A stretch of DNA of 64,000 bases from an uncultured bacterium (GTDB taxonomy: Bacteria > Patescibacteriota > JABMPQ01 > CAVVCK01). The stretch spans positions 303,592 to 367,591 of the forward strand of contig CAVVCK010000002.1 of NCBI GenBank assembly GCA_963746775.1, read 5' to 3'. A program made the position numbers and the translations under genes. This document shows positions 15,156-64,000 of this stretch, piece by piece. The notes below the pieces were generated by a model. That model ran no database searches. It was not told the origin of the DNA and saw only the letters and a program-made list of their open reading frames with translations. The first letter of the stretch is position 1. Every line of letters starts with the position of its first letter.

Positions 15156-15156
15156 A

Positions 15157-42161: not shown

Positions 42162-42482
42162 CTAATAGGTTGAATACTCTGCTCCACCACCTAATATTGA
42201 ACTACCCACGCCAAAGACCATCATGATTATCCAGCATAAACAAGCAATTGCAGTCGGTACAATACCTAATATTAAACACATTTTACCAAATTTTTTATTC
42301 TCTTCTCCACCCTTCTTCATGTAAATAATACCCAGGATTATACCTAAAATACTGATGAAAAACGATAATACGTAATAAAGAGATTTTGGCTCTGGAGGCA
42401 TTTCACCACTGTTTGGTGTCTGAGATTGCTGTTTTTCCGGCTGTGGTGTCTCCTTTTGCATTTGTGTGTTTGTTTCTTCCAT
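42162..42482 (-). CDS. small membrane protein, hypothetical
   Basis: 106 aa with a Q/P-rich N-terminus and two TM helices. First gene of the long minus-strand block. Confidence 0.4.
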   Translation of the reverse strand: MEETNTQMQKETPQPEKQQSQTPNSGEMPPEPKSLYYVLSFFISILGIILGIIYMKKGGEENKKFGKMCLILGIVPTAIACLCWIIMMVFGVGSSILGGGAEYSTY

Positions 42483-42571
42483 TTATTTTTATTAAAATTT
42501 ATAAGTTACTTATTATTTGTATTATAGCATATTTTAGCTAATTTTTCTATATTTCTCTGTGGATAAATTAT

Positions 42572-43747
42572 TTATTCAATATCTACCATGTATAGTTTAT
42601 TATCGTATCTGTTTATAAAATAAATTTTTTTATTGTCAGAAAATGGCATTATATTACAAATATCAAATATTGTATCCTTGTTAAATGCAGTAATTTGAGT
42701 GTGTTGTTTTGTATTAAAATCATACTCCCATAAAGTTGTATTAAAATAATTATCTCTATTTTCTTCTACCTTAGCATAAACCAAGCTAGAATTATTAATA
42801 AATTCAACTTTATTTAAATATGTTCCTAAATTTATGACTGTTTCACTAGCTTTTTCTAAATCATAAATTGATATTATTGGATATGGAGTAGAGCTTGATT
42901 TTGATAATAATATTTGTTTACTATTAGGACTAAATTTTCCTCTATCAATATTTTCATTTTGCAATATATTACTTTTTTTATCTAAATTAAATAAAACAAA
43001 GAAATTCTTTACAGTAGCCTCAGGTTCTGCATCATATTCTATGCCAGTATTTTCTTCTTTATAAAAAAATGCTGGCTCTGTTCTAGTATATAATAAATTT
43101 TTACCGTTCGGTGAAATCTCTATTAAAAATCCACTATTTACAAACAAATCTAAGAGTTCCTCTCTATTATCATTATTAACATTATAAGTATTAATATTAT
43201 TTTTATTAGAAACAAAATAAGTTTCAATAATTTTATCTTTTTCTAAAGGATGCCATAGAGCTGTTTTTATATTTTTGTTTAATTCTTTTTTTGTATTTGT
43301 ATTAAGATCATAAATAAAATAACTATCTTGATTATAGTCTTTATATAATAATTTTTCTTGAAAAGGTGACAATTGCACTTCACTTAAAACAGGTAAATCT
43401 TTTATTAATATTTCTACTTTATTGTTATTTTCTTTAATATTTAAACGACCATAAATATTTTCTTGCTTTGAATAAAAATATATATAATCACCTATTAATT
43501 GTGCTTCATCTATATCCAAATCAATTATTTGATTATTTTCACCTACATTACTTTTATTTTCATCAATATTAATAGTTTCAGAATTACTTTCGTCTTCTAG
43601 GTTTAATTTGTTAATCTCATAATATTTTTTTTCTTCAATAACATCTGGTTTTTTATTAACAACTAATAAAACATAAATAATTATTATAATTATGATTATA
43701 ATAATCATTAATGTAACATATAATAATATTTTGTATTTTTTACTCAT
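42572..43747 (-). CDS. membrane-anchored PD40/TolB-like beta-propeller protein
   Basis: N-terminal TM with a poly-Ile run. PD40-like blades (ISPNGKNLLYT, FSPNSKQILLSK). Paralogous in architecture to 46517..47767. Confidence 0.45.
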   Translation of the reverse strand: MSKKYKILLYVTLMIIIIIIIIIIYVLLVVNKKPDVIEEKKYYEINKLNLEDESNSETINIDENKSNVGENNQIIDLDIDEAQLIGDYIYFYSKQENIYGRLNIKENNNKVEILIKDLPVLSEVQLSPFQEKLLYKDYNQDSYFIYDLNTNTKKELNKNIKTALWHPLEKDKIIETYFVSNKNNINTYNVNNDNREELLDLFVNSGFLIEISPNGKNLLYTRTEPAFFYKEENTGIEYDAEPEATVKNFFVLFNLDKKSNILQNENIDRGKFSPNSKQILLSKSSSTPYPIISIYDLEKASETVINLGTYLNKVEFINNSSLVYAKVEENRDNYFNTTLWEYDFNTKQHTQITAFNKDTIFDICNIMPFSDNKKIYFINRYDNKLYMVDIE

Positions 43748-43796
43748 AAACTTGTTTCAATTTTAACGTAACCCACTTATGGTTTTTTATTAATAA

Positions 43797-45206
43797 TCAA
43801 TCTAACATTCTGTGTACATAAATAGGGCAATTTCTATTACTATACCAGCTACTTGTTAAATGGCTTTGTAAGCTTGCAGTAATATGGACAGAACTAGATC
43901 TATGTCCATTAGTTGTAATAGCGCCGCCGCCGCCGCCCATCTCAATAACTTCTGCTCCTGAAACACCGGTATAATTAATTGCATGTCCACAATCTCCTCC
44001 AATCCAGATGAAACTACCAGGAGTCATTTCTGCAGTACCATTCTGTAAAGCACTGGCAAATTCTCTAGCGTTATTAAAATAATATGTAGAAGAACTTCTA
44101 TTAGCACTTATCGCTATAACATTACTGGTTACTCCTGCACATTGATATAGTGTACGTGTAAAAGTCAAACAATCTCCACAATAAGTACCACCTAAGCTTT
44201 GTGCCCAAGTTCTATAGTTGCTCATAGCTTGATTCATATCACCACTGACTGGATCAACCCACTGGCTTCTGTAACCTGCACTGGATTGTAATTTTCTACT
44301 TAAATAGGTATCTGAACTACTTGCATTACAAGTTCCTCCGTGCATAGTTCCTCCTCCTACATAAACAGCTCTTCCTGGGAGTATACTTCGCCAACCATTT
44401 ATAATATTATTATAATTTTCTAATTGATTTCCCGAATTACTGTCAGAAGAACAAAAACTCATCATTTGCCTATATAAATCCGAACTATTAGATATACAAC
44501 ACCACTGATTAGTTTGATTATTAGATACATCTGTACCAGTACTAGTATCCGTACTAGTATCCGTACTAGTGTCAGTAGTAGGACTAGTGACATTTACTTG
44601 TTGTTCAATACAACTTCCTCCGCATCTACTATTATTTGTTCCGCCATGAGCCGCACATTCACTTTGCTCGTCAAATAAATCATCTTCATGCAGCCCAGCA
44701 CAAGGGCTAGAAGACACTCCTGAACCACCACCTGAACCACTATCTGAACTACTATCTGAACAAGTACCGTAATTACAAAACTGACCACTCGAACAGTCGC
44801 TATCACTATGGCACCTCACCACATCTGGCAAAGTTACTTCCGGTATATCAAGCTGACATTGCAAAAGAGAAGGCGATATAACTTGAAAAATTAAATAAGA
44901 AAATAAGGCTAAAAAAAATCCAGCCATAGCTCCAGTCATCATCTTCTTAGCATTCCCTAATCTCTCCTCTTGTCCCAGTGATACCATATAATAAAATCCA
45001 CCTAAAACCAACATAATTAGAGTCAAAATGCCAGCAGCCGACATAGAAAAATCAAAAACATCTTTCCAGTATGCACAAGGAGTACTAGTATCAAAACCTA
45101 AAACGCTAGCTCTAACAAAGCCAACCATACTAAATATTGATATAAATACAAATAAAAAAATAAATAATATTCTTTTCGATTTCATTTTAAAAGTATTAAA
45201 TAACAT
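43797..45206 (-). CDS. VirB2/TrbC-like pilin module fused to a large Cys/Ser/Gly-rich ectodomain
   Basis: Signal peptide, then a two-helix hairpin (AAGILTLIMLVLGGFYYMV - short charged loop - AMAGFFLALFSYLIF) in the T4SS-pilin topology. Followed by the motif VRCHSDSDCSSGQFCNYGTCSD and about 330 aa rich in Cys. Confidence 0.5.
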   Translation of the reverse strand: MLFNTFKMKSKRILFIFLFVFISIFSMVGFVRASVLGFDTSTPCAYWKDVFDFSMSAAGILTLIMLVLGGFYYMVSLGQEERLGNAKKMMTGAMAGFFLALFSYLIFQVISPSLLQCQLDIPEVTLPDVVRCHSDSDCSSGQFCNYGTCSDSSSDSGSGGGSGVSSSPCAGLHEDDLFDEQSECAAHGGTNNSRCGGSCIEQQVNVTSPTTDTSTDTSTDTSTGTDVSNNQTNQWCCISNSSDLYRQMMSFCSSDSNSGNQLENYNNIINGWRSILPGRAVYVGGGTMHGGTCNASSSDTYLSRKLQSSAGYRSQWVDPVSGDMNQAMSNYRTWAQSLGGTYCGDCLTFTRTLYQCAGVTSNVIAISANRSSSTYYFNNAREFASALQNGTAEMTPGSFIWIGGDCGHAINYTGVSGAEVIEMGGGGGAITTNGHRSSSVHITASLQSHLTSSWYSNRNCPIYVHRMLD

Positions 45207-45282
45207 ATATCAGATAGCAGGCACCAAGTGTCTAATATTTAATATTCATTATTTTAATATTATACCAAAATCCATAACAAAC

Positions 45283-45426: not shown

Positions 45427-46455
45427 TTATTCCCATCCTTCATCTGTACAATGTCCACCTGTACATGTTCCTGAAAAACACTGCCTATTCCTTTCACATA
45501 AACCATTCACAAGACTTTCTTGACAACGCCATCCAGCCCGAGCACCTGACATATTACAAAAATATGAGTTAAAACAATCATTATCACTATCACAACTACT
45601 ATTAGTACCATTTACACATGTTCTTGGGCTACGATTACTACAAATTTCTGACTGACAATCCTGATTACTAGTACAAGGATTCCCATTAGCTATAGCTCCT
45701 CCACCAGCAGCAGGTTGACATGTTCCCGCTACATCACAATTTCTACTCGTACAGTCTGTATTATTTCCACAAGGAGATCCATTATTATGATCTGTGCATC
45801 GGTGCTGGCTGCCTACGGCCACACAAGCTAATCCTGTATTACACCTAGTATTATCAATACAACCTCTCCCATTTTGACCTAACTGGGTATCTGTACATAT
45901 AGGCTGTCCCCCACCAGTAGGATTAATACATATTGAACCTGCCCCATTCCTATCTTCACAAACCGTTCTATCATGATCAGCAGCATCAGGATCACATGAA
46001 GTTGAGCTTCTGGGATTATCTCTATCAGCACAAGCACCAAAATTACAAATCTGGCCATTTGAACAATCACTATCACTACGACACACTCCTGTATTTAACG
46101 AATCTGTCTCTGGTATTGATAATCTTAATTCTACTAGCCTTGGATCAAGTTGTTTTAATATCATATGTGAAAAAAGCATAATAACCAAACCAGATAGAGC
46201 AGCAAAAATAGCTTGCTTACCTGAAGTTACTGCTTCCTCATTGCCAGCTGAAGTTAAATATCTAAAACCTCCATATACAAGACCACCTAGAGCTAAAAGA
46301 GCCCCTAGACTTATTCCATATCGATAAATAGAATTTATCCAAGCCTGAGGGGAAGAAGTATCAAAACCAAAAAAGCTGGGGATATCAGCTAGAGCAAAAC
46401 TAGGAAATGTTATTAAAATTGTGAAGATAATTAGAAATGTTTTTTTGAAAAACAT
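45427..46455 (-). CDS. VirB2/TrbC-like pilin module fused to a Cys-rich ectodomain (paralog of 43797..45206)
   Basis: Signal peptide (cleavage after FALA). Two-helix hairpin GISLGALLALGGLVYGGFRYL - loop - AIFAALSGLVIMLFSHMIL. Motif CRSDSDCSNGQICNFGACAD, then about 220 aa with more than 35 Cys. Confidence 0.5.
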   Translation of the reverse strand: MFFKKTFLIIFTILITFPSFALADIPSFFGFDTSSPQAWINSIYRYGISLGALLALGGLVYGGFRYLTSAGNEEAVTSGKQAIFAALSGLVIMLFSHMILKQLDPRLVELRLSIPETDSLNTGVCRSDSDCSNGQICNFGACADRDNPRSSTSCDPDAADHDRTVCEDRNGAGSICINPTGGGQPICTDTQLGQNGRGCIDNTRCNTGLACVAVGSQHRCTDHNNGSPCGNNTDCTSRNCDVAGTCQPAAGGGAIANGNPCTSNQDCQSEICSNRSPRTCVNGTNSSCDSDNDCFNSYFCNMSGARAGWRCQESLVNGLCERNRQCFSGTCTGGHCTDEGWE

Positions 46456-46516
46456 ATTTTTTTAAGATACAAGGACACAAGAAACAAATTACAAACAATA
46501 TTTCAATAACTCAATC

Positions 46517-47767
46517 CTATGGCATAATCAATCCATAGAATTTTCCATCGTGTTTTCTAGTAAAATACATACTCTTCTGATCTCCAGAAATTAAAGGCTG
46601 ATAGACATCATAATCTTTATTAAATTGAGAAAAATCAGCTAATTTTTCCTGTTCACCACTATCTACGTTTATTTTGTAAAATGAATCTTTGGAAACAAAT
46701 TTAGTATTATAATAATCATCTGGCTGAACAAAAAAGTTGCTATAATTTTCAGGCACTCCGCAAAAAACACTAACACTATCTTGGGCCCAAGCACATTTTT
46801 CTACTAAAGTAGCAATTTGTAATTTTTTTGGCTCTATTTTTTTATTTACTTCTGCCTCCCAAAGTACAGGAAATCTAGCATTTTTAGTCTCATTATCATT
46901 ATATATTACTTTTTTTCCATCTGGAGAAAATAAAGGATTAAGTCCCCATCTCTTAGATAAAAAAGTATAATGATCTATTCCTTCTCCTACATTGTATATT
47001 TCTAGTTGTCCTTCTTTGAAGGCTGTTGCAGTATTATAAACAGCTAAATCATTATTAGAAAACCATTTAGTCTCAATTTCTTCTTGGTCTATCTCTTTAA
47101 TTTTCCTCCAAGAAGATAAATCTGGTTTAGCTACTGATAGATTATACTCATCATTAGCCAAATCATGAAATACATAAGCAATATTTTCACCATTATATGA
47201 CATGGTAACATCTTGATATCTATCTTCATATTTAATATCCTCTTGCATATTTAAATTAAAGAAGTGATAATTTTTTGTCATTCCTTTATCTTGAGAAAAT
47301 GTTAAAACAATCTTTTCTCGATCAGGCGACCAGCTCACATTATATAAATTTTCAAATTTAGCATTTGTTAAAACCTGTTCCCCAGTTCCATCAATGTTTG
47401 CTTGGTAAAATTCTTTACCATTAGGATCAAAATATATAAACTTACTTTTATCAGCTGAAAAAACAACAAATTTTACTTCTTTGTCAATAATCTTTTTAAT
47501 TTGCAAAGCTTTAACTTCTTCTGTTGACTGATTATTGTTTAATTTATTAGCCTCTTCCTGCCTTAATTGCTCTTCTTTTTGTGCTAAGGTTAATCCATTC
47601 TTTCTTTCTTCATCTGTTAACTGTAAATTAGACCGCTGATCTTCTGGCAGAATAACTTCTTCTGGTTTTTGCTCTTTATTAGAAGTTGAAGTTAAATAGT
47701 AAAAAACACCTAATCCTATTAATATGATAATTAATATAGCAGCTAATATTATGTACTTTTTTTTCAT
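46517..47767 (-). CDS. membrane-anchored TolB-like PD40 beta-propeller protein
   Basis: N-terminal TM. PD40 repeats (VSWSPDREKIVLTF, FSPDGKKVIYND). Confidence 0.55.
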   Translation of the reverse strand: MKKKYIILAAILIIILIGLGVFYYLTSTSNKEQKPEEVILPEDQRSNLQLTDEERKNGLTLAQKEEQLRQEEANKLNNNQSTEEVKALQIKKIIDKEVKFVVFSADKSKFIYFDPNGKEFYQANIDGTGEQVLTNAKFENLYNVSWSPDREKIVLTFSQDKGMTKNYHFFNLNMQEDIKYEDRYQDVTMSYNGENIAYVFHDLANDEYNLSVAKPDLSSWRKIKEIDQEEIETKWFSNNDLAVYNTATAFKEGQLEIYNVGEGIDHYTFLSKRWGLNPLFSPDGKKVIYNDNETKNARFPVLWEAEVNKKIEPKKLQIATLVEKCAWAQDSVSVFCGVPENYSNFFVQPDDYYNTKFVSKDSFYKINVDSGEQEKLADFSQFNKDYDVYQPLISGDQKSMYFTRKHDGKFYGLIMP

Positions 47768-47833: not shown

Positions 47834-50527
47834 TTATTTTCTCCCTGAAGCTTTATACATAAATCCTATTATAAACAATGTAACTAACCCCGTTAAACCA
47901 AATACAAAAAATAAGTTAAACACATTTTTATAATATTGCGGAATGAATTTACTTAGAGCTCCAGCCACACCTAAATTCTCTCGATCTACTTCTGGATTAG
48001 ATAAATTGATTTCCCTTGTCTTTGAAGCTGTTTCTGTAAGAGGATTGCCATTGTTTTCCACATAATTAATTTTACTCTCTACTTCTAAAGTAATGATTTC
48101 TTTATTAAGCCCATTCGGTTGCCCATTTATATCTACACCAGGTTTAAATGTATAAGAAGATTCTGTTGTATTCCAATCTCCTCTCCTAGTATCAACTGCC
48201 TCTCCATTCCTTTTCCATGTATAAGTAAATTCTCTAGATGGTCTCCAATAATTAAGACTGGCATGAATAGTTACATTGCTATCTCCGGCATAATAAGTTG
48301 ATTGGTTACTATCCTCGGGAGAGGTTCCTATTTCAACTCCCTCGGGATCATCGAACTCAATACTAGGAGGTTTAATTTCAAAATTCCTATCATTTCGTGC
48401 AATAATATCTTTTTTATCATCTAAAACTTCCAAAGTCACAGCCTCACTGCTAGTATTAGCCAGACTATTAGCTTCTTCCCCTGTGGGTTCCCCAATACTA
48501 CGTGGATCATCTCTCAGAATAAAATAAGCTGTCTCGAAATTAGGACCCTTACCACTTTGCAATTGTTGTTCTTTTCCTTTAAAATTCCACTTAAAATTAA
48601 AGTTCTGTACTGCTAACTCAAAGGGGTCATCACAATTTTCAATACCATATTTAGTTTCACACTCCTTTTTAACTTTTTCATCTTCAACCTTATATTTATT
48701 TTTACATTCATCCCCAAATCCATCTTTAATCTTATTAACTGTAGCCTTTACTAAATCTCCAGTACGAAAACCTTGATCTTCTGTTATCTTACCCTTAAAA
48801 GCATCCTGATCCAAAATATAACTCTTTTTCAAAATATAATTTTCACTATTCGGATCATCAAAATTTATATCATTAAAATCTATTCCTTTCCGCTCATTAA
48901 ATTTTTTTACTTCCTCATTTTTTAAATCAACATTACCAATAACATCCATATCTAAACTAGAATCAAACCCGATAGGAATTTCAAATTCTTGAAAATTCAA
49001 TCGATTGGTGTTTTTTTCTAATATTTCCAGCCCTATCGTATCTCTATCACAAGCTTGTTTTTCAGTATTATATTGATAAATTTTCTTACCGTAACCTTCC
49101 TCTACTACATCTTCATCTTTATGCCCATTTAAAAACCATTTAAATTCCAAATCAAGCCCGGCATTTTCTTCTAATTTTGAGGTTTCAGCAATAACTGTAA
49201 TTGGTATTGGATCACCCGGTATAGGAGGCGCTGGATTATAACTCCAACCTACTTTAAGTGCAAGCCCTAAGCCAACTTCAATTTCATTTTCTCCTTTTGG
49301 AGTCGCCTCAAATCCACAGCTTGTATCTTCTGGAGCAGGATAAGTAAATAAGGTATATTTATCTCCTGAATTCTCGTTTCTATATTTATCATTTACTCCA
49401 AAAACTCTCAGCATTACGTTGTATTTTTCTCCATATTCTTTTTTAACTATAAGATGAACATTATCTTGTTTTATCCCAATATAATCTAGACCATCTTCAA
49501 CTCCATCATTGTCTGTATCCGAAGTTGTAGGATTTGTACCTTCTATATATTCTCTTAATATATCAAAGGATTTTTGACCTGGATTTACTTCTTGACCAAC
49601 AGAACTTCTTAAATATGGTACACCAAGCATCCAGGGTGCACTATAATTATTACCTTCATCTTTAAAAAAATACTCCCAAGCATCTCCGTCCGGATCATTG
49701 ACAAATACACTCGGATCATCTGGTGAAACAATTTTATCTGGTTGCACTAATGGCAATAAGGCTTCATCATTATCGGGCATATAAAAAAATCCTTTCTCCG
49801 TACTGCCATCTTCATTTTCTGTTGTGTAATTAATTAGCTTGCCTTTAAAATATCTTATTTCCCAATTATCATCCAAACCATCTCCATCAGTATCATTACC
49901 TATTGTAGGCTGCCTGGTTACATAAAATTCAGGCGGAGCAGAATTCTTAACATAATTTTCATAAGATATATTTCCTATCCTTCTAAATGGTAATGTTTCA
50001 TTATCACCTTCTTGAAATATTGTAATTCTGTCTCCAAGTATAATATGTCCAGTACCAATATATTTAACTAAATTTTCTGCATTACAATATAATTTGTTAT
50101 CATTTCTTAGACAGTATGCTTCATCATCACCAATTTTATACATTTTTTGCGAAGTAAAACCTCCTGCTAACGCTGCTCCAGGATTACAAATTTTATCAAG
50201 ATTATCTTTTCCAATATCCCCATATTCACTTTGCAGATAATAACCATCCACCTCATTGCCAGCAATTTTATCTGAAGAACCTGCATTTAATGTATTTAAA
50301 GGAACTTTATCAATACACCACATATAATTCATTCTATCCTGATCTTCTCCGTCAGCACTATAACCTTCTGATTGCGCCTGAAGAGTAATATTAGCTCCTG
50401 GCTGTATTATACCTGGAATTACACCAAGATTTACTCGAGGACAATCCGCAGCCAAAACATTCATGGAAAAAAGCAACATAAATAACATTGTGCCTATTCC
50501 TATACTTATTTTATTTATTTTATGCAT
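47834..50527 (-). CDS. large (897 aa) surface protein with signal peptide, TSP3-like Ca-binding repeats and C-terminal TM anchor
   Basis: Signal MHKINKISIGIGTMLFMLLFSMNVLA. DTDGDGLDDNWEIRYF and DTDNDGVEDGLDY repeats. C-terminal LFFVFGLTGLVTLFIIGFMY followed by KASGRK. Confidence 0.5.
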   Translation of the reverse strand: MHKINKISIGIGTMLFMLLFSMNVLAADCPRVNLGVIPGIIQPGANITLQAQSEGYSADGEDQDRMNYMWCIDKVPLNTLNAGSSDKIAGNEVDGYYLQSEYGDIGKDNLDKICNPGAALAGGFTSQKMYKIGDDEAYCLRNDNKLYCNAENLVKYIGTGHIILGDRITIFQEGDNETLPFRRIGNISYENYVKNSAPPEFYVTRQPTIGNDTDGDGLDDNWEIRYFKGKLINYTTENEDGSTEKGFFYMPDNDEALLPLVQPDKIVSPDDPSVFVNDPDGDAWEYFFKDEGNNYSAPWMLGVPYLRSSVGQEVNPGQKSFDILREYIEGTNPTTSDTDNDGVEDGLDYIGIKQDNVHLIVKKEYGEKYNVMLRVFGVNDKYRNENSGDKYTLFTYPAPEDTSCGFEATPKGENEIEVGLGLALKVGWSYNPAPPIPGDPIPITVIAETSKLEENAGLDLEFKWFLNGHKDEDVVEEGYGKKIYQYNTEKQACDRDTIGLEILEKNTNRLNFQEFEIPIGFDSSLDMDVIGNVDLKNEEVKKFNERKGIDFNDINFDDPNSENYILKKSYILDQDAFKGKITEDQGFRTGDLVKATVNKIKDGFGDECKNKYKVEDEKVKKECETKYGIENCDDPFELAVQNFNFKWNFKGKEQQLQSGKGPNFETAYFILRDDPRSIGEPTGEEANSLANTSSEAVTLEVLDDKKDIIARNDRNFEIKPPSIEFDDPEGVEIGTSPEDSNQSTYYAGDSNVTIHASLNYWRPSREFTYTWKRNGEAVDTRRGDWNTTESSYTFKPGVDINGQPNGLNKEIITLEVESKINYVENNGNPLTETASKTREINLSNPEVDRENLGVAGALSKFIPQYYKNVFNLFFVFGLTGLVTLFIIGFMYKASGRK

Positions 50528-54336: not shown

Positions 54337-54500
54337 TTCTTTAAAACGTTAAAACTTTAAAACATAAAAACAAAAATTTTCTAATATCTTGTGCTTTATT
54401 TTCAATGAAACATCTAATTTTAAAAACCACAAATTTCTAATTAGTCATTTTAAAATTTTATTAGAAATTAGAAATTAGTAATTGGTAATTAGAAATTATT

Positions 54501-55413: not shown

Positions 55414-55863
55414 TTACTTTGGTATTTCTTCAGTGCTTTTTATCACTCCACCCATATCTAGTATTTGAGAAAGTTCTTGAATTCTACTCCTATTAAAACT
55501 TTTATCTCCAATCTCTTGTGTTTGCGCTTTAGAAATTATTCTCCCCCTTTTATTACTGTCACTTATATTAATATGAGATGTTTTTACATCACGTAACCAA
55601 AGCCGTAGTTTAGGAGAGGTGAAAAACTTTACAGCCGCCTTTAAATAAATTTCAAAAGGCCGGCCATTAATCTTTATAAAAGCAAAAGGAATAACTACTG
55701 CGCCAGCCAAAACTGCTAATAGAATAAATAAGGTAAGATCAGCTAGTGCCCAAACAATAAGTAAAAAAACTCCTCCAACTACTAAATATAAAAATTGCTT
55801 GGTAGTAAGCGGACCAATTACTTTGTCTTCAACTTCAATAAATTGAGGAACGGCGTATTGCAT
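55414..55863 (-). CDS. PrgI/VirB3-like small 2-TM protein
   Basis: MQYAVPQFIEVEDKVIGPLTTKQFLYLVVGGVFLLIVWAL...FILLAVLAGAVVIPFAFIKINGRPFE has the PrgI-family N-terminus and topology. Upstream of VirB4 as in Gram-positive T4SS. Confidence 0.4.
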   Translation of the reverse strand: MQYAVPQFIEVEDKVIGPLTTKQFLYLVVGGVFLLIVWALADLTLFILLAVLAGAVVIPFAFIKINGRPFEIYLKAAVKFFTSPKLRLWLRDVKTSHINISDSNKRGRIISKAQTQEIGDKSFNRSRIQELSQILDMGGVIKSTEEIPK

Positions 55864-55942
55864 AAATTTAATTATTGAAACATATTGAAACTCATAGAAA
55901 TAGATAGAAATACATTGCTGTTAATCATCTTTTAATTTGTTT

Positions 55943-55995
55943 CCAATGCATTTCTATATATTTCAACTGTATCTCAATTATATTTCTATTTATAC
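55943..55995. repeat. left copy of about 55-bp imperfect direct repeat flanking the four-helix-bundle gene
   Basis: ccaatgcatttctatatatttcaactgtatctcaattatatttctatttatac versus the right copy at 56445-56497 (about 80% identity). Confidence 0.55.
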
Positions 55996-56366
55996 TTCGA
56001 TCTATACGTTGAACTAATAAAATTATTTAGTTTTACTGACAATTCTTTAGTAACTTTCTTGAATTCTATATATTTATCTTCTTTTAAAACTTCCCTTTCA
56101 AATAACAATTCCAACCAATAATCGCTGCGTTCACTTAATGAAGCTCTGCTGTTATAATAAAATTTTATTTTATCCAAATAGTGATATCTGCTATAGCCTT
56201 CAGTAATATTAGCTCCAACTGAATCTGTAGATCTAATAAATTGATCGCCAATCACTTTTTTATTTTGCCAACCTAAACTACTATATATTTCCCAACTTAT
56301 TTTAGATAATTGTCGAGCTAACTTATAAACATCTAAATCTTGTAAAAGAATGTATTTATTATTCAT
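55986..56366 (-). CDS. four-helix-bundle protein (23S rRNA intervening-sequence / Avd-like family)
   Basis: DLDVYKLARQLSKISWEIYSSLGWQNKKVIGDQFIRSTDSVGANITEGYSRYHYLDKIKFYYNSRASLSERSDYWLELL matches the PF05635-type pattern (L.VyqkA..L...iy.....fP......l..Ql.Rsa.Si..NIAEG..R....e...F...A.GS..E....L.l). Confidence 0.65.
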   Translation of the reverse strand: MNNKYILLQDLDVYKLARQLSKISWEIYSSLGWQNKKVIGDQFIRSTDSVGANITEGYSRYHYLDKIKFYYNSRASLSERSDYWLELLFEREVLKEDKYIEFKKVTKELSVKLNNFISSTYRSKYK

Positions 56367-56444
56367 AAAAGTGGTAACCTCCTATTACTCACTTAATAAT
56401 TTATAATTAATATTATCAAATCTCTATTTATTTCTACTATATCT

Positions 56445-56497
56445 CAATTGCATTTCCATGTATTTCAACTATATTCCAACTGTATTTCTATTTATCT
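56445..56497. repeat. right copy of about 55-bp direct repeat, embedded in a degenerate roughly 21-bp periodic array
   Basis: caattgcatttccatgtatttcaactatattccaactgtatttctatttatctc. Confidence 0.55.
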
Positions 56498-56526
56498 CAA
56501 TCATATTTCTATTGTATTTCAAAAAT

Positions 56527-57831
56527 TTAAATAGATTTTAATACCTTCCTCATCTCCTCAAATTCATCCTTACTCAAATACTTCTCCCCTCTTCCTTTCC
56601 TTTCTTCGGCAATTTTACCTATATCTTTTTTGGAATCCAAACTTTCCTTGCCTTGCAATAAATATATTTTATAAAGTTCACTTCTTCTTAAATAATATTT
56701 TACAGCTTCTTTGCTTTCAGATGATTCAACTAATAATTTTTTAATTTTTGCAGACATAAATGCGCCAGCAGCTTCAGCCTCCTTGCCATAACTTCTAAAA
56801 TCTTCTATGTTTAATTTTTCTAAAGATTGAACTGTGGCTAATTTTGCTAAAGAAATTTTAGGAATAGGATTCAAATTAGCAAACTTTTTTTCTTTAATTA
56901 AATCATAATCACTTCTTGGTTTAGATAGTGTTTGCGGAACATTTTTTTCATCATTTCGTAACAAACTTCCCTTCACTCCTAGCAAATTACTATCTTCTCT
57001 CATCTCTCCTCTAATTATTTTCTTTTTTTCTTCTCTAGCTTTCTTTCTCTTTTCTATTTCTTTTTTGTATTCTTCTGGATCAAGAGGCATGTATTTTTTA
57101 TCTAAACCAGTACCCACTTCTCTTATACCAAATACAGAAAGCGGATAAGTAGCAATGCCATTAGGATGGGCCATATCTAATTTTAGTTTTTCATATAATC
57201 TTAATATTTTTTTTAATATCATCTTATCTTCAAAACTCAATATTCTAACATTTTTACTTTTAAATAAATAATTAGAGATATCTAATTCTCCGTGTTCACC
57301 TGCACCAATTAGATTATCATAATCAGCCAGCCAATTACGTACAGATGGCTCTTTAGGTTTATTATTAGATCCAATTATTATCTGACTATCCCCTAATATT
57401 TCTATATTTTCTTTTAGCGCTTCTCTAATATTTTTTAAAAAAGGATCTCTTTTCCATATATTAGAGATACCAAAAACTTTAGCTCTTAGTTTATTTTCCA
57501 AATTAATTTCCCATTTAATACTAGTTTTAATTATTACTAAAAAGTGTTTTCTAAATAAATCTATCGCTTTTTCATCGCTTAATAATGATAACTGTACAAA
57601 ACCAATTTTTACTAAAAATTCTAAGTACTTTTTAGCTAAATCTTGATTAAGCCCTGACCCAAATTTTCGTAAGGACTCTTCTAAATTTAATCTTAAAATA
57701 TTATATTCCACTACTTCCTCGCCTGTTATCCCATTATCATACCGCAAAAGATAATCAACTTTTTTAGTGATTTCCCTTAATACTTCTTGATCTTCTAATT
57801 GTCCTTTTGTAAAAGCTTGTATTTTTTTCAT
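56527..57831 (-). CDS. hypothetical cytoplasmic protein in the T4SS-like operon
   Basis: 434 aa with no TM, K/E-rich central region and no recognised motif. Confidence 0.45.
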   Translation of the reverse strand: MKKIQAFTKGQLEDQEVLREITKKVDYLLRYDNGITGEEVVEYNILRLNLEESLRKFGSGLNQDLAKKYLEFLVKIGFVQLSLLSDEKAIDLFRKHFLVIIKTSIKWEINLENKLRAKVFGISNIWKRDPFLKNIREALKENIEILGDSQIIIGSNNKPKEPSVRNWLADYDNLIGAGEHGELDISNYLFKSKNVRILSFEDKMILKKILRLYEKLKLDMAHPNGIATYPLSVFGIREVGTGLDKKYMPLDPEEYKKEIEKRKKAREEKKKIIRGEMREDSNLLGVKGSLLRNDEKNVPQTLSKPRSDYDLIKEKKFANLNPIPKISLAKLATVQSLEKLNIEDFRSYGKEAEAAGAFMSAKIKKLLVESSESKEAVKYYLRRSELYKIYLLQGKESLDSKKDIGKIAEERKGRGEKYLSKDEFEEMRKVLKSI

Positions 57832-57942: not shown

Positions 57943-60165
57943 TTAGGTCCTTCTTGCAGCTCTTCCTTCTGGAGTTGAAACTCTATCATCACCATATTTT
58001 CTTAAATGTCCATAACTAGTAGATCCACGTCCAGGAGGTTCTAATACAACTTGGAAATCATCCACTAGATCTTCTATAGCCCTTTGTGTTTCTGCTGGCA
58101 TAGTAACATCTTCACCTATTTCATAATAAATTTGCAAAGTATTTTTTGCTTTTTTAGCTTCTTCTCCCCCTGCCGCAAATTGATCTCTTAACACATCAGC
58201 AACTCCTCTGGTTACTTTTTCACCATTTTTATTCAACCCTGCAAAATGCCCTGGTTCTACTAAATGTCCTTTAATGGCTGGCGTCATAGACGGTATCCCA
58301 CGATAGCCATCTTTACTATTAAATCCTTTTGCTCTAAGATTTTCTTCATATCCAGGAGTCATGCCTAATCGTATTTCTTCTCCTGTCTCTTTATCCCAAG
58401 TCATATTCATAAAATCTCCTCGATAAGCACCCATACGATCCCTAAAATCTCTTTTAGCAAATTCTCCTGCCCAATTTTCTTTGTATTGTTGTTCAGAATA
58501 TCCTTCCTCACCAGCCGCTACTAGCCTGCCAGAGTCTGGATCACGTTTTAAAAATTCCTTGAATTGCCAGTTACCTATCCCTACTGCTTGCTCACTCATA
58601 TCGAGAAACATTGACCGGCCATTTTCTTTCCCAAACAGATTTTCATACATTGCCAAGGCTGCTTTCGGAGTATATTCACCTTTATTTTCATCAGCTGCTT
58701 CTTTGCTTCCAAATAATTTTATAGCTAAATCTTCGTCCTTAGTAGCTGCTGAAAGTAATTCGTTAATATTTTTAGTATTACAAAGCTCTTGTATCGCTGC
58801 TTCAACATCAGCTTCTTCACCAACCACGCCTGCTGATTCTTTTAATCTATTAACATAATACTGCCAAGCTTGACCCTTATTCTCAATATTAAACCTATGT
58901 TTAGCTTCATCAACGAACTGCTTATGAGCAGCATATTCATATTGATTTTTGTCCTTAGTACTACCAGGAATTTTACCAAGATAATTATTTATCTGATCTC
59001 TAGCCCAACCAGTAGCCAAACCACCTACTTCTGATTCCTCTTTTTCTTTTTGTGCTTTCCATGCCTGAGGAAGATAAGTTAGTTTGGCCATATTATGCAC
59101 CCCCCCTAAGGCTTTACCAGCAAGCCATCCAGCTTTACCTTTACTTGTTAATCCCTTAGCAGTCTTCCCTAATCTATCACTAGCTAATTTCCTACGACCC
59201 CAACCTCCAACCAATTTAGCTCCACCCGTCATTCCCTTCTTAGCAAAATCCATGGCAATCTGAGCTCCATAACCTCCGCCTTCTTTTATCATAGCAATTC
59301 CCAGAAAAAGCAACCCAACAACCAAAGCATACCCCCAAACAAATTCTGTCTGTGTTAACTGAGTAGCTGGCAAAGTGGGTGAAGAATGATTTAATGCACT
59401 ATCCCACGCCTCAGCCCTAAATCCAGAAGTATCATGATCTCTCATCTCGGCAGCAACAATAGCTGACAAATAAATACAAAAAGCAGCTATGGGTCCATAA
59501 AATAAGTATTTTATAAACTCATCCCACCATTTTTTAAAATATGTGCTGGTCACCGGCAGTATATTCATACCAAAAGCTATTGGAGATAAAACAATTAAAA
59601 CTAGCAAAGCTATAGTTCTAGTTATCATCATGCCGGTTAACCCGGCAAAAGCAATCGCCAACCCACCCATATATATCGTTATTAAAGCCATTGATATACA
59701 CATAGTTAAATTGGTAATATCCAATGCACCAATTCCAGAATCAATATCCCATACAGAACTAATTCCCATTAAAGCAGCAATGCCCGCAGCTGTCTCCTGG
59801 CCTGGAGCAAAATTTAAAAAGGCGCTGGTTAAAACATTAGAAAATTCTATTAAAACAGCACAGATAGTACGGCTAAAATTAACCAGTAATATACCCAATA
59901 TTAATTTTGGCAATAATTGCTTATACTGATAAGCTTCTATACGTAAAATAGTAGTAAAGGCAATAACTAAAAGAAAAATAACAAAAAACATATTAATTGT
60001 ATCTCTGGCAATACTCCAACCGACATTAACTGAATCCATATCTTGAACAGCTAGAGCGCCACTTAAGACAACACCTAAAAGAGCATCACTCATCCAAATT
60101 ATAAGTGCAAATAAAGCAGTGGTTATTTTTAGTATGCCTCCGATTAAAAGATATAAGGCTGCCAT
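57943..60165 (-). CDS. VirB6/TrbL-like polytopic membrane protein with C-terminal soluble domain
   Basis: N-terminal half has 6-8 TM helices. About 400-aa hydrophilic C-terminal extension. Position and size are consistent with PrgH/ConG-type VirB6 analogs. Confidence 0.4.
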   Translation of the reverse strand: MAALYLLIGGILKITTALFALIIWMSDALLGVVLSGALAVQDMDSVNVGWSIARDTINMFFVIFLLVIAFTTILRIEAYQYKQLLPKLILGILLVNFSRTICAVLIEFSNVLTSAFLNFAPGQETAAGIAALMGISSVWDIDSGIGALDITNLTMCISMALITIYMGGLAIAFAGLTGMMITRTIALLVLIVLSPIAFGMNILPVTSTYFKKWWDEFIKYLFYGPIAAFCIYLSAIVAAEMRDHDTSGFRAEAWDSALNHSSPTLPATQLTQTEFVWGYALVVGLLFLGIAMIKEGGGYGAQIAMDFAKKGMTGGAKLVGGWGRRKLASDRLGKTAKGLTSKGKAGWLAGKALGGVHNMAKLTYLPQAWKAQKEKEESEVGGLATGWARDQINNYLGKIPGSTKDKNQYEYAAHKQFVDEAKHRFNIENKGQAWQYYVNRLKESAGVVGEEADVEAAIQELCNTKNINELLSAATKDEDLAIKLFGSKEAADENKGEYTPKAALAMYENLFGKENGRSMFLDMSEQAVGIGNWQFKEFLKRDPDSGRLVAAGEEGYSEQQYKENWAGEFAKRDFRDRMGAYRGDFMNMTWDKETGEEIRLGMTPGYEENLRAKGFNSKDGYRGIPSMTPAIKGHLVEPGHFAGLNKNGEKVTRGVADVLRDQFAAGGEEAKKAKNTLQIYYEIGEDVTMPAETQRAIEDLVDDFQVVLEPPGRGSTSYGHLRKYGDDRVSTPEGRAARRT

Positions 60166-60416: not shown

Positions 60417-61436
60417 TTAGTGTTCAAATGCTCTATTGGCCCCTACCCCTTGTGTGGCTGTTTCTATTGCTTGTTTATATTCTGTAGCTGCGCTTCTTTT
60501 TTGTTTTGATCCTCCGGTAATAGCAGATATACCAGCAGATACAGCTTTATTTATTAATAAATCTACTATTTGACCTAAAAATCCTAATAAATCAGCAAAA
60601 ACCTCTGACCCTACACTTCCTTGCTCTAATGTATTATATGATTCCAGTGCTCCAGCTATAGTTTCTCCCGTAGTCTGTACGGGACATTCATTTTCCTGCA
60701 TCTCTCCATCATGATTTGTATCATTTGATTCTGCTGTCCATTGAGAACAATCTCTTGTGCCCAAAAATCCTCTGTTAGCTGATGCTTCATCTCTTAAATC
60801 ATTAGCAGTTCGTGTAGATTGAGTAGCAAATCTTTCTTGCGCATCTATATATGCTCCATATTGATTATTTGATCCTAAACTTGTTTGAAATAAACCAGAT
60901 AAGTAGTTATGGTTTATTTCATCCCATAACGCTTCTCCTCCTCCTCCCGTATCCTGTTCTGCTGTAATAACCCTTTCCAACATCTGAGCTAAATTACTTT
61001 GATCATAAGTACAATCCGGTTGATCGCTACCATCCCCGGTATTTAGAGCCGTTTCATTGCCTAAAGCTATTCTAACATTCATAGAAAAATCAGCACACAA
61101 TGAAAAATTACTAAACTGACCCACAACTGATTCTAGGGTCTGGAAAAGCAAATCCTCATAGAGCCAAGTTTTAAATGAGTCCATGTCCATGGGAAATTCA
61201 CCAGTAGTAATATAACCAATAACTATTTTCTTTATTAAGGGAAAAATCACTGATTTCCAAATGGACACCAATAAATTATTCAATATTTGTTTAATATCAA
61301 AAACAGGACCGATAGCTTTTGCTTTTTTGGGCATTGCTAGAACTCCTAATCCGCTAGCTACAAAACAAACAATACCTATTAAACTTATTAATAATAGTTT
61401 TTTAAATATATGATGTTTCTTAAAAATTAAGATCAT
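60417..61436 (-). CDS. membrane-anchored extracytoplasmic protein, hypothetical
   Basis: N-terminal TM (LLLISLIGIVCFVASGLGVLA), then a 300-aa soluble domain with 4 Cys. Confidence 0.45.
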   Translation of the reverse strand: MILIFKKHHIFKKLLLISLIGIVCFVASGLGVLAMPKKAKAIGPVFDIKQILNNLLVSIWKSVIFPLIKKIVIGYITTGEFPMDMDSFKTWLYEDLLFQTLESVVGQFSNFSLCADFSMNVRIALGNETALNTGDGSDQPDCTYDQSNLAQMLERVITAEQDTGGGGEALWDEINHNYLSGLFQTSLGSNNQYGAYIDAQERFATQSTRTANDLRDEASANRGFLGTRDCSQWTAESNDTNHDGEMQENECPVQTTGETIAGALESYNTLEQGSVGSEVFADLLGFLGQIVDLLINKAVSAGISAITGGSKQKRSAATEYKQAIETATQGVGANRAFEH

Positions 61437-61479
61437 CTTTATTAAATTATATTTTTTATTTTAAATAAATTATAAAATC

Positions 61480-62589
61480 CTACTGATGTTGTTCCAAAAA
61501 AGCCTTACTGGGCAATTCTACCCCATTCTCTTCAGCTAATTCTTGTGCTCTAGGATAAACTTTATCAAAAATGTAATCATTAAGACTACTGAATTGGGGT
61601 AATAAATTCATTACTTCATAAAAAGCATTATTTCCCTGGAAATCCATATTTTCAAGTGAATTAAACAAACCTTGCAAGGTAATCGCTGAAGTTAAAACCT
61701 GCTTGTGAAATTCTATAAATTCTGGCTTATTGGGCACTTCTGTTTCTATAAATTCGCCTTTTATTTCTAAAACAATATCTTCTAATTCTTTTATTTGAGA
61801 AGAATTAGCTATATCTACAGTTTCAGCATAACTTTCTGCTTCATCCATACTATGAATAGGAGAATTACTATATAATATAATACCTATTATATTAAAATAA
61901 TCCTGAATGAATTCTTGAGAAGTATTATCTGATACTTTTACATCTTCTTCTGGCACTTCAGGAAAATCAATTTCTTTTTCGAGATCAATTTTTGAGGTAT
62001 CTAATCCAATAGAGGCTAGTGAATCTGGAGTTACCTCTGAAAAATTCTTAACATTTAAAATTTTTTCTATACTACTTGAAGTTGTATCACTTGTTGAAGA
62101 ATTATCACTTTCTGTTTTTTTAATAATTGGCTCCAAAAAAGAAAAATCTGCTTGTAAAGGATCATGCCCAGTTAATATTTCAAAACCATCAGAATAACCA
62201 TCATAATCTGTATCAGCTTTATTGGGATCAGTTTTGTATTTTCGTTCATCTTCCCCTGTCAATCCATCTTCATCCTTATCTACTAAATTATTTCCCTCTT
62301 GTTTTAGTGGATCAAAGCCTGCCTTAACTTCTTCTCCATCTGTATAACCATCATCATCACTATCATAGTTATATGGATTTGTTCCTAGTTCATATTCTTT
62401 TTTGTCAGATACGCCGTCAGAATCAGAATCCAAACCAGATATATCAAAAATAGATTTTTCTTCGTTTTTATCTTTAGCAGAAAACATATCCTGCCAAAAA
62501 AAAGCCTTAACATTTAGGGCACTGGTAATAGAAAAAAATGATATCACTATCACAACTAATCCGATTATTTTTTCTCGGTATAATTTCAT
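61480..62589 (-). CDS. membrane-anchored TSP3-like Ca-binding repeat protein
   Basis: N-terminal TM. DSDSDGVSDKKEYELGTNPYNYDSDDDGYTDGEEVKAGFDPL and DKDEDGLTGEDERKYKTDPNKADTDYDGYSDGFEILTGHDPL. Confidence 0.5.
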   Translation of the reverse strand: MKLYREKIIGLVVIVISFFSITSALNVKAFFWQDMFSAKDKNEEKSIFDISGLDSDSDGVSDKKEYELGTNPYNYDSDDDGYTDGEEVKAGFDPLKQEGNNLVDKDEDGLTGEDERKYKTDPNKADTDYDGYSDGFEILTGHDPLQADFSFLEPIIKKTESDNSSTSDTTSSSIEKILNVKNFSEVTPDSLASIGLDTSKIDLEKEIDFPEVPEEDVKVSDNTSQEFIQDYFNIIGIILYSNSPIHSMDEAESYAETVDIANSSQIKELEDIVLEIKGEFIETEVPNKPEFIEFHKQVLTSAITLQGLFNSLENMDFQGNNAFYEVMNLLPQFSSLNDYIFDKVYPRAQELAEENGVELPSKAFLEQHQ

Positions 62590-62748
62590 ATTAAATTTAT
62601 TTTTAACTCATGCAAATTATAACACACATTTGATTATGTTTCCAAAGCATTGGGTGTGAATAACTCAAATCACGAGAACATAAAAACAATTTAAACTTAT
62701 ACATTTTTTTAAACATTGTGTATCAGGAATCCGAAATTATATTTTGTT

Positions 62749-63579
62749 TTAATATTTTAATGTTTTTAGAATTTTATATAGTTCCATCCATTCCCTTAAA
62801 TCCAAAGTCTGCGCTCTTCTGGCTGGATCAATTTTAGCTTTTTTTAATATACTTTTAGCATTATCACCTGAAATTAGTAAACCGTTTGAAATATTATTAT
62901 GTATTTGTTTTCTTCTCGCAGAAAATCCAGCTTTCACAATTCTAAAAAATGAATTTATATCATCAATTTTATACTTTGGTTTATTATAAACTTCAAACTT
63001 AATAACAGCACAATCTACGTCTGGTTTAGGATAAAATGACCTGTTCGATACTTGCCTAATTATTTTAGAATTACTATATAATTCACAAGCGATAGACAAA
63101 ATACTTCTGTTTTTATCTGTTGCCACAATTCGATCAGCTACTTCCTTTTGCATTAATAAAACCATTATACTGGGCTTATTATCCATTTCTAAAAATATTC
63201 TTAAAAATCTCGAAGTTAAATAAAATGGTAAATTAGCAATAACCTTATAGTTTGGAAATTGGAAATTAGAAATTGGAAATTTTAATATATCCTCATTAAT
63301 TATTTTTAAATTTTTATTGCTTTTAAATTTTTTTTCTAGGTATGGAATTAGATTCTTATCTTTCTCAATAGCTAATACTTGGCAATTTTTCTTAATAATT
63401 TCTTCAGTCAAGATTCCCAATCCCGGCCCTACTTCTAAAACAGTATCATTACTCATCAGATCAGCTGCCTCAACCATATCATGTACCACACTTTCACTAT
63501 ACAAAAAATTTTGCCCTAATACTTTATTAGCTTTTAAACCAAAATTATTTAATTCTTTTTTTAATTGATCTCTATTCAT
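62749..63579 (-). CDS. rsmA: 16S rRNA (adenine1518/1519-N6)-dimethyltransferase RsmA/KsgA
   Basis: LGQNFLYSESVVHDMVEAADLMSNDTVLEVGPGLGILTEEI (SAM-binding motif I) and ANLPFY. Confidence 0.85.
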   Translation of the reverse strand: MNRDQLKKELNNFGLKANKVLGQNFLYSESVVHDMVEAADLMSNDTVLEVGPGLGILTEEIIKKNCQVLAIEKDKNLIPYLEKKFKSNKNLKIINEDILKFPISNFQFPNYKVIANLPFYLTSRFLRIFLEMDNKPSIMVLLMQKEVADRIVATDKNRSILSIACELYSNSKIIRQVSNRSFYPKPDVDCAVIKFEVYNKPKYKIDDINSFFRIVKAGFSARRKQIHNNISNGLLISGDNAKSILKKAKIDPARRAQTLDLREWMELYKILKTLKY

Positions 63580-63699
63580 TTATTTATAACTTTATAATTA
63601 TATATATTACTACATTAAATTATTTTTGGAATTTGTCCGCCTCTAACAACGGATCCGCCGTTAGAGGCGAAATATTTATTTGGAAATGGAAATTGGTTA

Positions 63700-63736
63700 T
63701 TCAAATAAAAACACGCGGTATAAGCACCGCGTGTTT
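63700..63736 (-). terminator. rho-independent terminator of the CHAP-domain gene
   Basis: Minus strand hairpin AACACGCGGTGCTTATACCGCGTGTT followed by TTTATTTG. Confidence 0.5.
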
Positions 63737-63758
63737 AATTTTATCAAAATTAATATCT

Positions 63759-64000
63759 TTAATAAATATATCCTTTAATAACTCCACTCTTGTTAGAAAC
63801 AGCTCGAGTACTTTCAATGGCAAATCCACGATAATTCATCTCACTTACATAGACAGTATCACCTTTTACTCCAGTAACAATAGCTACATGTCCCCACCAG
63901 CTTTCGCTAGTAACCATTATTGATCCTACAGCCGGTACTCTACCAGTAGCTCTACCTTGAGCTCTAGCATTTGTAAGCCATTGACCAGCGTTACCACGCC
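63759..64000 (-). CDS. CHAP-domain peptidoglycan hydrolase (N-terminus beyond window)
   Basis: C-terminal ...WWGHVAIVTGVKGDTVYVSEMNYRGFAIESTRAVSNKSGVIKGYIY* carries the conserved CHAP His block. Stop codon at 63759-63761. Confidence 0.55.
   Translation of the reverse strand, partial: RGNAGQWLTNARAQGRATGRVPAVGSIMVTSESWWGHVAIVTGVKGDTVYVSEMNYRGFAIESTRAVSNKSGVIKGYIY

Follow-up and report, generated by a model that had tools for sequence, protein, structure and literature searches.

What does a type IV secretion system (T4SS) do in a bacterial chromosome when neither a coupling protein nor a relaxase is encoded beside it? The question is raised by a stretch of 64,000 nucleotides from an uncultured member of the Patescibacteria, or candidate phyla radiation (CPR) (contig CAVVCK010000002.1, positions 303,592 to 367,591). 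We analyzed this stretch in full and refer to it as the window. An initial annotation had described about 20 consecutive minus-strand genes in its right-hand part and read them as a Gram-positive-type T4SS. All 17 open reading frames (ORFs) of at least 100 amino acids over 42162-63579 do lie on the minus strand, as does a gene cut off by the window edge (63762-64000), with gaps of 43-251 nt. The run is nevertheless interrupted by a 23S_rRNA_IVP gene and by the housekeeping gene ksgA. We conclude that 42572-62589 is very probably a chromosomal, vertically inherited Patescibacteria T4SS that descends from the conjugation machines of monoderm bacteria (MPF_FATA type) and has lost their DNA-processing parts.

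The search for DNA-processing genes covered the 64-kb window. None of its ORFs of at least 90 amino acids matched a type IV coupling protein (T4CP/VirD4), relaxase, integrase or transposase family, including ORFs without any match that were rescanned at E values up to 1. No T4SS-DNA_transf or TraG-D match to a coupling ATPase was found in the window. Walker A motifs occur only in the ORFs for GatA, RecG, RadA and VirB4, together with a low-complexity match in the tail of the VirB6-like protein, and VirB4 is the only T4SS-type P-loop ORF. The initial annotation had likewise reported that these families were missing.

Relaxase-less, pilin-bearing T4SSs of the Gram-positive type have already been published from the CPR (Wang et al. 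2023; Quinonero-Coronel et al. 2025; a 2025 FEMS review), so the system is not new, although the initial annotation had treated it as novel; the locus confirms it rather than discovers it. Few machines have been shown to be essential for an epibiotic member of the CPR, and the Patescibacteria T4SS is among them. Since its substrate and mechanism are not known, every well-annotated locus sharpens the picture of the conserved core. To this picture the present locus contributes fold evidence for VirB8, a conserved all-helical protein family and fusions of pilin domains to cargo.

A VirB4 core of the monoderm type

We compared the cluster with the best 80 of 408 loci from a scan for VirB4 relatives that took one genome per species; their VirB4 proteins are 57-76% identical to that of the window. 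Most of the 80 are labeled as metagenome-assembled genomes (MAGs) of Patescibacteria/CPR (Parcubacteria or Patescibacteria group, Falkowbacteria, Doudnabacteria, Kerfeldbacteria, Andersenbacteria). The few labeled Gammaproteobacteria, Verrucomicrobiia or "bacterium" are probably mislabeled. Individual related loci are cited below by the labels L002, L003, L004, L005, L008, L010, L011 and L085, and L082 denotes Pontibacillus sp. ALD_SL1.

The 631-residue VirB4 ATPase (52441-54336) is of the monoderm (MPF_FATA, CD1110) type. It matches the Pfam families P-loop_TraG (92.8 bits) and CagE_TrbE_VirB (26.8 bits; gathering cutoff, GA, 21) and the NCBIfam model conju_CD1110 (375.6 bits, cutoff 325). 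The Walker A (GAGKS) and Walker B (VLVIDEAW, extended as VLVIDEAWWMM) motifs by which it had first been recognized are intact. Its best relative in the PDB is VirB4 from Thermoanaerobacter (4AG5, E 2e-45), whereas TrwK is matched at only 4e-6. The best matches outside the CPR, at 30-35% identity, are CD1110-family VirB4 proteins on plasmids of Firmicutes and Actinobacteria. The PDB match and the CD1110 score bear out the Gram-positive-type channel that had been proposed. According to the survey by Quinonero-Coronel et al., the VirB4 proteins of 2,407 Patescibacteria assemblies group together in a single monophyletic clade within MPF_FATA (PMC12102498). The nearest relatives of the window VirB4 are consistent with a place in that clade, as far as sequence comparison can tell.

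Two further genes upstream belong with virB4. One codes for a 149-residue PrgI/VirB3-like protein (55414-55863) that matches Pfam PrgI at 43 bits (GA 27), has transmembrane (TM) segments at residues 19-37 and 45-63, and has an orthologue in 77 of the 80 loci. It had been placed immediately upstream of virB4; the PrgI identity and the two TM segments stand, but a 255-residue gene (54501-55268) lies in between. The product of this gene is TrsD-like. Among NCBIfam models, it matches VirB4_plasma (a Mycoplasma VirB4 model) over positions 86-236 of 894 (E 3.4e-11), TrsD (E 3.2e-4) and CD1110 over positions 11-83. The 631-residue VirB4 covers the complementary positions 272-893 of VirB4_plasma and 177-733 of CD1110. 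Because the two proteins cover complementary parts of the same models, we read them as a split VirB4, as in TrsD/TrsE of pGO1, with the TrsD-like protein as the putative N-terminal part. BLASTP and local hhalign found no similarity between the 255-residue family and the N-terminal 260 residues of VirB4, as is expected of parts that do not overlap; the result agrees with a complementary split and not with a duplication. Nearly all of the 80 loci have a TrsD-like orthologue (79) and retain the order PrgI-TrsD-like-VirB4 (77-79).

The VirB6/TrbL-like polytopic membrane protein (740 residues, 57943-60165) is predicted to span the membrane about seven times within residues 1-293 and ends in a hydrophilic tail of about 440 residues, in line with its first description. 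Its own match to Pfam TrbL is sub-threshold, a weak TrbL_3 match is recorded in precomputed data, and its profile found no match among PDB sequences. Orthologues occur in 49 of the 80 loci. Of 45 orthologues searched singly with their first 400 residues, 14 matched TrbL (best E 3.6e-8); by transitive homology, the family is therefore TrbL/VirB6-related. Profile hidden Markov models (HMMs) thus place the window PrgI and VirB4 above their cutoffs, and the window VirB6 is supported through its orthologues.

Directly after virB4 lies the gene for a 208-residue protein (51726-52352) that we call VirB8-like on fold evidence. It combines an N-terminal hydrophobic helix bearing an invariant G-C-K (a putative lipobox), a disordered linker and a C-terminal NTF2-like domain. 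A membrane anchor joined to a VirB8-type NTF2-like domain and encoded in a T4SS cluster is the feature of the VirB8/PrgL/TcpC family, and this protein has it. The NTF2-like lipoprotein had been put forward as a possible VirB8/PrgL analogue, and the assignment survives HMM and fold tests. Homologues are found in 41 of the 80 loci. The locus gives fold-level evidence that, in this lineage, a VirB8-like subunit follows VirB4 directly. According to passages of the survey, VirB8 homologues in Patescibacteria are found almost only in the class ABY1 (PMC12102498).

Between the PrgI and VirB6 genes is a gene for a soluble, all-helical protein of 434 residues with the motif NWLxDY...G (56527-57831). 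Structure prediction, which the initial annotation had suggested for this protein, gave a confident all-helical model without a specific structural match. The family is present in 71 of the 80 loci. It is a conserved cytoplasmic component and might be a new core subunit of the T4SS.

The cluster shares a CD1110-family VirB4, a PrgI-family VirB3 and a VirB6-like polytopic protein with the conjugative T4SSs of the MPF_FATA type (pCF10 Prg/Pcf, pGO1 Trs, CTn2 CD1110 and ICEBs1), and its VirB8-fold protein resembles PrgL, TcpC and TraM. It differs from them in several respects. We detected no T4CP (PcfC/VirD4), relaxase or oriT in the window, and the operon appears to have no dedicated hydrolase of the PrgK/CwlT type. 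It does have VirB2-like pilins, which MPF_FATA systems generally lack, and the locus is chromosomal and vertically inherited rather than mobile.

The closest VirB4 outside the CPR (35% identity) is encoded on an 898-kb plasmid of Pontibacillus sp. ALD_SL1 (L082, 7498-17051). A homologue of the TrsD-like protein lies directly upstream of it (E 2e-26), a pilin-like gene there is homologous to a window pilin domain, and the annotation within 12 kb shows neither a T4CP nor a relaxase. Monoderm T4SS clusters with pilins but no relaxase therefore occur outside the CPR as well. The Pontibacillus cluster differs in having a large M23 peptidoglycan endopeptidase after VirB4, where the window has the VirB8-like lipoprotein, and in lacking propeller and TSP3 proteins; its host is a free-living Firmicute.

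Pilin domains extended by large extracellular tails

The cluster encodes two proteins with VirB2-like pilin domains. The first (342 residues, 45427-46455) matches Pfam T4SS_pilin (PF18895) at 30.8 bits (GA 26.6) over residues 34-101 and continues into a tail of Cys-rich repeats that can be read directly from the sequence. The Pontibacillus homologue of its pilin domain (E 2e-5) is annotated as a "Mbov_0395 family pilin-like conjugal transfer protein". Such a homologue in a Firmicute suggests that no transfer from diderm systems is needed to account for the pilin gene. The second (469 residues, 43797-45206) consists of a VirB2-like domain (residues 47-110; T4SS_pilin), a Cys knot, a Ser/Thr-rich linker and a Cys-His-Glu domain of about 230 residues. 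Homologues of this fusion score 33-37 bits against T4SS_pilin. Pilin-domain ORFs in the related loci range from 102 to 646 amino acids, with at least 200 in 19 of 22. Fusion of pilin domains to large extracellular modules is one of the additions made by this locus.

The C-terminal domain of the second fusion (43797-44519) is rare. A search of 1.84 billion proteins returned 12 cluster representatives, and T4SS_pilin was found in 8 of the 10 that were scanned. Its invariant residues are C-G-D-C, GH and E-M-G-G, accompanied by several conserved cysteines. Neither the single sequence nor the profile matched any PDB sequence. Two of the 12 members gave weak NLPC_P60 matches, and hhalign aligned the domain with the CHAP fragment at the window edge at E 0.056. 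The invariant residues resemble those of papain-fold hydrolases. From them and from these weak matches we tentatively propose the domain as a candidate papain-fold (CHAP/NlpC-P60-like) peptidoglycan hydrolase, an identity that we regard as doubtful. If it were correct, a wall-cutting enzyme would be part of the machine itself, borne on its pilus or membrane anchor. An enzyme tethered in this way to a VirB2-like pilin could replace the missing VirB1/PrgK, or could breach the host wall where epibiont and host meet.

Chromosomal setting, rival readings and role

We delimited the cluster by its neighbors. The gene ksgA/rsmA (62749-63579), for a 16S rRNA dimethyltransferase (Pfam RrnaAD, 185 bits), is a housekeeping boundary outside the cluster, as it is in L002, L004, L005, L010 and L011. 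Beyond it, the 3' end of a CHAP-domain gene (63762-64000) runs off the window; its C-terminal part (63762-63998) matches Pfam CHAP at 46.3 bits. A terminator with a 12-bp stem (63736-63709) follows the stop codon of this gene and precedes ksgA. In a scan for promoters and terminators, counts did not exceed shuffled expectation, this strong terminator excepted. The CHAP gene has no homologue in the 80 related loci, and a divergent UbiA gene lies upstream of ksgA in relatives. Because ksgA forms a boundary, the CHAP gene ends in a strong terminator, and relatives have UbiA rather than CHAP beyond ksgA, the T4SS cluster proper is 42572-62589. The initial annotation had counted the CHAP hydrolase as a CwlT/PrgK analogue. 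The domain is there, but the gene sits beyond ksgA with its own terminator and is not syntenic. It is probably a separate transcription unit, whose membership in the T4SS is unsupported by synteny or operon structure.

On the other side, the cluster is flanked by radA (39689-41044) and by recG (36791-38893), which lies on the opposite strand. Between the cluster and radA is a gene for a small protein of 106 residues with two TM segments (42162-42482), whose membership is uncertain. Its DUF4064 match is below cutoff, and it has no homologue in the 80 VirB4 loci. A closer relative, L085, has a 102-residue ORF at this position and keeps the radA side (propeller, pilin fusion, small TM protein, DUF2085, radA, MPG, recG).

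The arrangement is shared with other Patescibacteria, as the initial annotation had proposed to check. In L002, L004, L005 and L008, the order is ksgA-TSP3-g339-VirB6-g434-PrgI-TrsD-like-VirB4-VirB8-like-g358-g897-pilin-PD40-pilin-(propeller)-radA-recG, where g denotes a protein by its length in the window. Among the related loci, 22 have RadA no more than 10 kb from VirB4, and 34 have RecG within that distance. In the genome pairs compared, VirB4 is better conserved than the housekeeping genes that flank the cluster. Identity in the L002 pair is 74% for VirB4, 59% for RadA and 48% for KsgA; in the L008 pair, it is 69% for VirB4, 60% for RadA and 59% for RecG.

These features match the published description of Patescibacteria T4SSs (PMC10633639, PMC12102498, PMC12857230), including the account of ABY1 given in the survey passages. 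Wang et al. (2023, Cell) reported that Southlakia epibionticum has an apparent T4SS closest to Gram-positive conjugative systems. It is essential for epibiotic growth by transposon sequencing (Tn-seq), pilin genes included, and it has no recognizable coupling or relaxase proteins (PMC10633639). Their supplement lists the order PrgI-hypothetical-VirB4 together with NTF2-like, TrbL-like and PF18895 pilin genes (PMC10633639). The survey by Quinonero-Coronel et al. (2025, Microb Genom) found VirB4 in 2,417 of 3,035 Patescibacteria genomes. Its passages describe TrsD, PrgI/VirB3, VirB6 and VirB2-like genes near virB4, as well as KsgA and, in ABY1, comF, recG and radA. They report that relaxases are almost absent and that most Patescibacteria genomes have VirD4-like genes, far from virB4 (PMC12102498). 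The 2025 FEMS review presents the Patescibacteria systems as newcomers to the T4SS superfamily (PMC12857230).

The window locus resembles the T4SS of S. epibionticum ML1 (SEML1_0006-0019) in being chromosomal and Gram-positive-like, in its PrgI-hypothetical-VirB4 core order (the hypothetical gene holding the TrsD position), in its VirB6/TrbL-like, NTF2-like and PF18895 pilin genes, and in the lack of a coupling protein or relaxase in the cluster. The two differ in lineage, since Southlakia belongs to the class Saccharimonadia and the window comes from an ABY1-like or Parcubacteria-like MAG. They differ in their pilins too: Southlakia has six short ones, arranged in tandem and encoded on the opposite strand, and the window has two long fusions split by a PD40 gene. 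Essentiality has been shown for Southlakia only. The resemblance to the ABY1 loci of the survey extends to virB4 with TrsD, PrgI/VirB3, VirB6 and VirB2-like genes, to VirB8, to KsgA and recG/radA/comF, and to the lack of a relaxase. The fusions of pilins to large C-terminal domains, the 434-residue family and the IVP cassettes go unmentioned in those survey passages (PMC12102498).

Could the locus instead be an integrative and conjugative element (ICE), or the decayed remnant of one, with its relaxase, coupling protein and integrase just outside the window? The CD1110 family of VirB4 is typical of conjugative elements, its closest non-CPR relatives are plasmid-borne, and sequence past 64000 lies outside the stretch analyzed. 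Both borders fall inside the window, however, at ksgA and at radA/MPG/recG, and several genomes with VirB4 57-76% identical share them, with UbiA beyond ksgA in relatives. The cluster shows no break in G+C, and no high-identity direct repeats of at least 20 nt that could serve as att-like sites were found flanking it. VirB4 is better conserved than its housekeeping neighbors, and the same locus recurs in many related genomes. A true conjugative relative on an Embleya plasmid (PrgI, VirB4, T4CP, relaxase-like gene, NlpC/P60) carries T4CP and relaxase-like genes directly after virB4, where the window has the VirB8-like gene. Because related Patescibacteria have this gene order in the same place, bounded by ksgA and radA-recG, we conclude that the locus is not an ICE, in agreement with the chromosomal, non-conjugative reading of the initial annotation. 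That the present locus is part of an ICE, or the remnant of one, is exceedingly improbable.

The T4SS-derived ComB system of Helicobacter pylori works without a coupling protein or relaxase, and neither was detected in the window. A competence-type T4SS for DNA uptake, like ComB or the archaeal Ced system, would have host or environmental DNA imported and then handled by RadA and RecG. The flanking radA and recG genes, which recur near VirB4 in related loci, would suit such a role, as would two genes elsewhere in the window, one of them ComFC-like (18953-19672) and the other for a possibly secreted SNase nuclease (13083-14495). The co-localization of comF, recG and radA in ABY1 that is described in the survey passages (PMC12102498) points the same way. 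Yet radA and recG are ordinary housekeeping neighbors, recG is on the opposite strand, and the cluster contains no ComEC or ComEA gene. ComB is a diderm system of the MPF_T type (VirB2-4 plus VirB6-10) that works with ComEC. The system described here belongs to the monoderm type, and a monoderm cell offers no outer membrane for a ComB-like first step. Competence in Southlakia depends on type IV pili and ComEC, and deleting comEC stops transformation without affecting viability, whereas the T4SS is essential (PMC12857230). The essential role of the T4SS is therefore not transformation, and competence does not explain its essentiality in Saccharibacteria. We consider DNA uptake an unlikely function for this locus.

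We favor a T4SS that no longer conjugates. A locus that has neither a T4CP nor a relaxase is unlikely to serve canonical DNA export. The most likely role is host contact and the transfer of proteins or other molecules at the interface of epibiont and host. Following established T4SS models and the structure of the R388 T4SS (PMC9259494), the VirB4 hexamer would dock through the TrsD-like N-domain and PrgI/VirB3 on a VirB6 platform. Once docked, it would drive pilin-domain subunits out of the membrane, as modeled for R388. VirB8-like subunits may scaffold the passage through the wall. Pilin tails would make up the exposed surface together with the propeller, TSP3 and 897-residue proteins. The product could be a short pilus or an envelope-spanning conduit that shows Cys-rich, possibly enzymatic domains to the host cell.

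Several points weigh against this interpretation. T4SS function has been demonstrated in no Patescibacteria, the substrate is not known, and a pilus has never been seen. The organism is an uncultivated MAG whose epibiotic lifestyle is assumed. Two component assignments fall below their family cutoffs in the window itself, namely the TrbL match of the VirB6-like protein (19.2 bits, E 0.0011; GA 25.9) and the T4SS_pilin match of the 469-residue fusion (24.6 bits, just below GA). Pilin domains with tails of 230-360 residues may not polymerize like VirB2. A VirD4-like gene may lie elsewhere on the 547-kb contig, and the adjacency of radA and recG could point to DNA handling.

Surface proteins, an inserted cassette and the rest of the window

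The remaining proteins of the cluster are predicted to be mostly secreted or membrane-anchored, and the propellers and large anchored surface proteins noted in the initial annotation are among them, as are the pilin fusions. The first gene after ksgA codes for a 369-residue secreted or anchored protein (61480-62589) with an N-terminal hydrophobic segment and bacterial thrombospondin type 3 (TSP3) Ca-binding repeats (Pfam TSP3_bac, 63 bits, four stretches); it holds the same position in L002, L004, L005 and L011. It is followed by a gene for a 339-residue protein (60417-61436) with an N-terminal TM or signal segment and no Pfam, NCBIfam or PDB sequence match. Its orthologues sit at the same position in L002, L004 and L005, and the protein is conserved in the closest relatives only (eight loci by iterative HMM search).

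A 358-residue protein (50583-51659) has a repetitive Lys/Ala/Glu-rich N-terminal region and three C-terminal TM segments (residues 264-349), with no Pfam or NCBIfam match. Its position is kept in L002, L004, L005 and L008, and its sequence is poorly conserved. The gene contains a near-perfect 30-nt tandem repeat (2.8 copies, 50959-51041) encoding AKVAKTG(V/A)EAAK units, which may be a contingency or length-variable region. The neighboring gene encodes a large surface protein of 897 residues (47834-50527) with TM-like segments at 7-25 (signal-like) and 872-890 (a C-terminal anchor). It has no Pfam or PDB match, and its homologues in the T4SS loci of relatives sometimes form three tandem paralogues.

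Two membrane-anchored beta-propellers accompany the pilins. The 416-residue PD40 (TolB-like) protein (46517-47767; 29.3 bits, GA 20.9), encoded between the two pilin genes, has an N-terminal TM segment and shares its position with L002, L003, L004, L005 and L008. A 391-residue protein (42572-43747) is a probable propeller and a paralogue of the PD40 protein (weak PD40 match, E 0.036). Its homologues adjoin RadA in L008 and L004, and it is the last cluster gene before radA in some relatives.

The gene for the 126-residue 23S_rRNA_IVP protein, a four-helix bundle (55986-56366; PF05635, 79.4 bits), lies between the 434-residue and PrgI genes. Its flanks (55865-56535, read on the coding strand) hold about ten GAAATA hexamers at 11-nt spacing upstream, and five direct then four inverted copies downstream. 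RNA folding pairs these flanks around the ORF (z -3.9). The gene is missing from this site in L004, L005 and L008. In L002, three IVP genes occupy other intergenic sites (7545-7889, 8394-8768 and 9687-9941), one of them between (TGTATTA)x4 and its reverse complement. The gene looks like an inserted small cassette, mobile or processed, and is probably not a part of the T4SS. A diversity-generating retroelement was considered because PF05635 proteins resemble Avd, and was rejected; no reverse transcriptase match was found in the window and no long repeat of the template/variable type in 34-64 kb.

The 164-nt spacer between the TrsD-like and VirB4 genes (54337-54500) is full of short tandem repeats, among them ATTAGAA x5.6 at 54460-54498 and TTAAAACA x4 at 54341-54372. 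The corresponding spacer in L002 holds a fragment of an IVP-like ORF; the repeats in the window may therefore be the scar of an IVP-type cassette.

The rest of the window is ordinary chromosome, with dnaE, thrS, miaB, ligA, gatA/gatC, htrA, recG, radA, an MPG glycosylase gene and three tRNAs. It also holds genes for a sortase, a pilin and a type IV prepilin peptidase. These three belong to a second surface-structure neighborhood (30549-34245), in which the prepilin peptidase (30549-31343) is accompanied by an N-methyl type IV pilin (31602-32021), the sortase (32241-32921) and a 426-residue ice-binding-like protein that has a region of Ser/Thr-rich tandem repeats (33108-33261). Further surface proteins are encoded in a run at 13083-17375 and 20778-22079. 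It includes a 470-residue FG-GAP propeller fused to a staphylococcal nuclease domain (SNase, 13083-14495), possibly a secreted nuclease for nucleotide scavenging, and several paralogous proteins with TSP3 repeats or binary-toxin Ca-binding domains, one of which has a cupredoxin-like domain. Two ORFs at 7874-9400 (508 residues) and 9715-10860 (381 residues) had no family match at E values up to 1. The strongest swing in strand composition of the window falls at 8001-10000, with a GC skew of -0.35 and an AT skew of -0.25.

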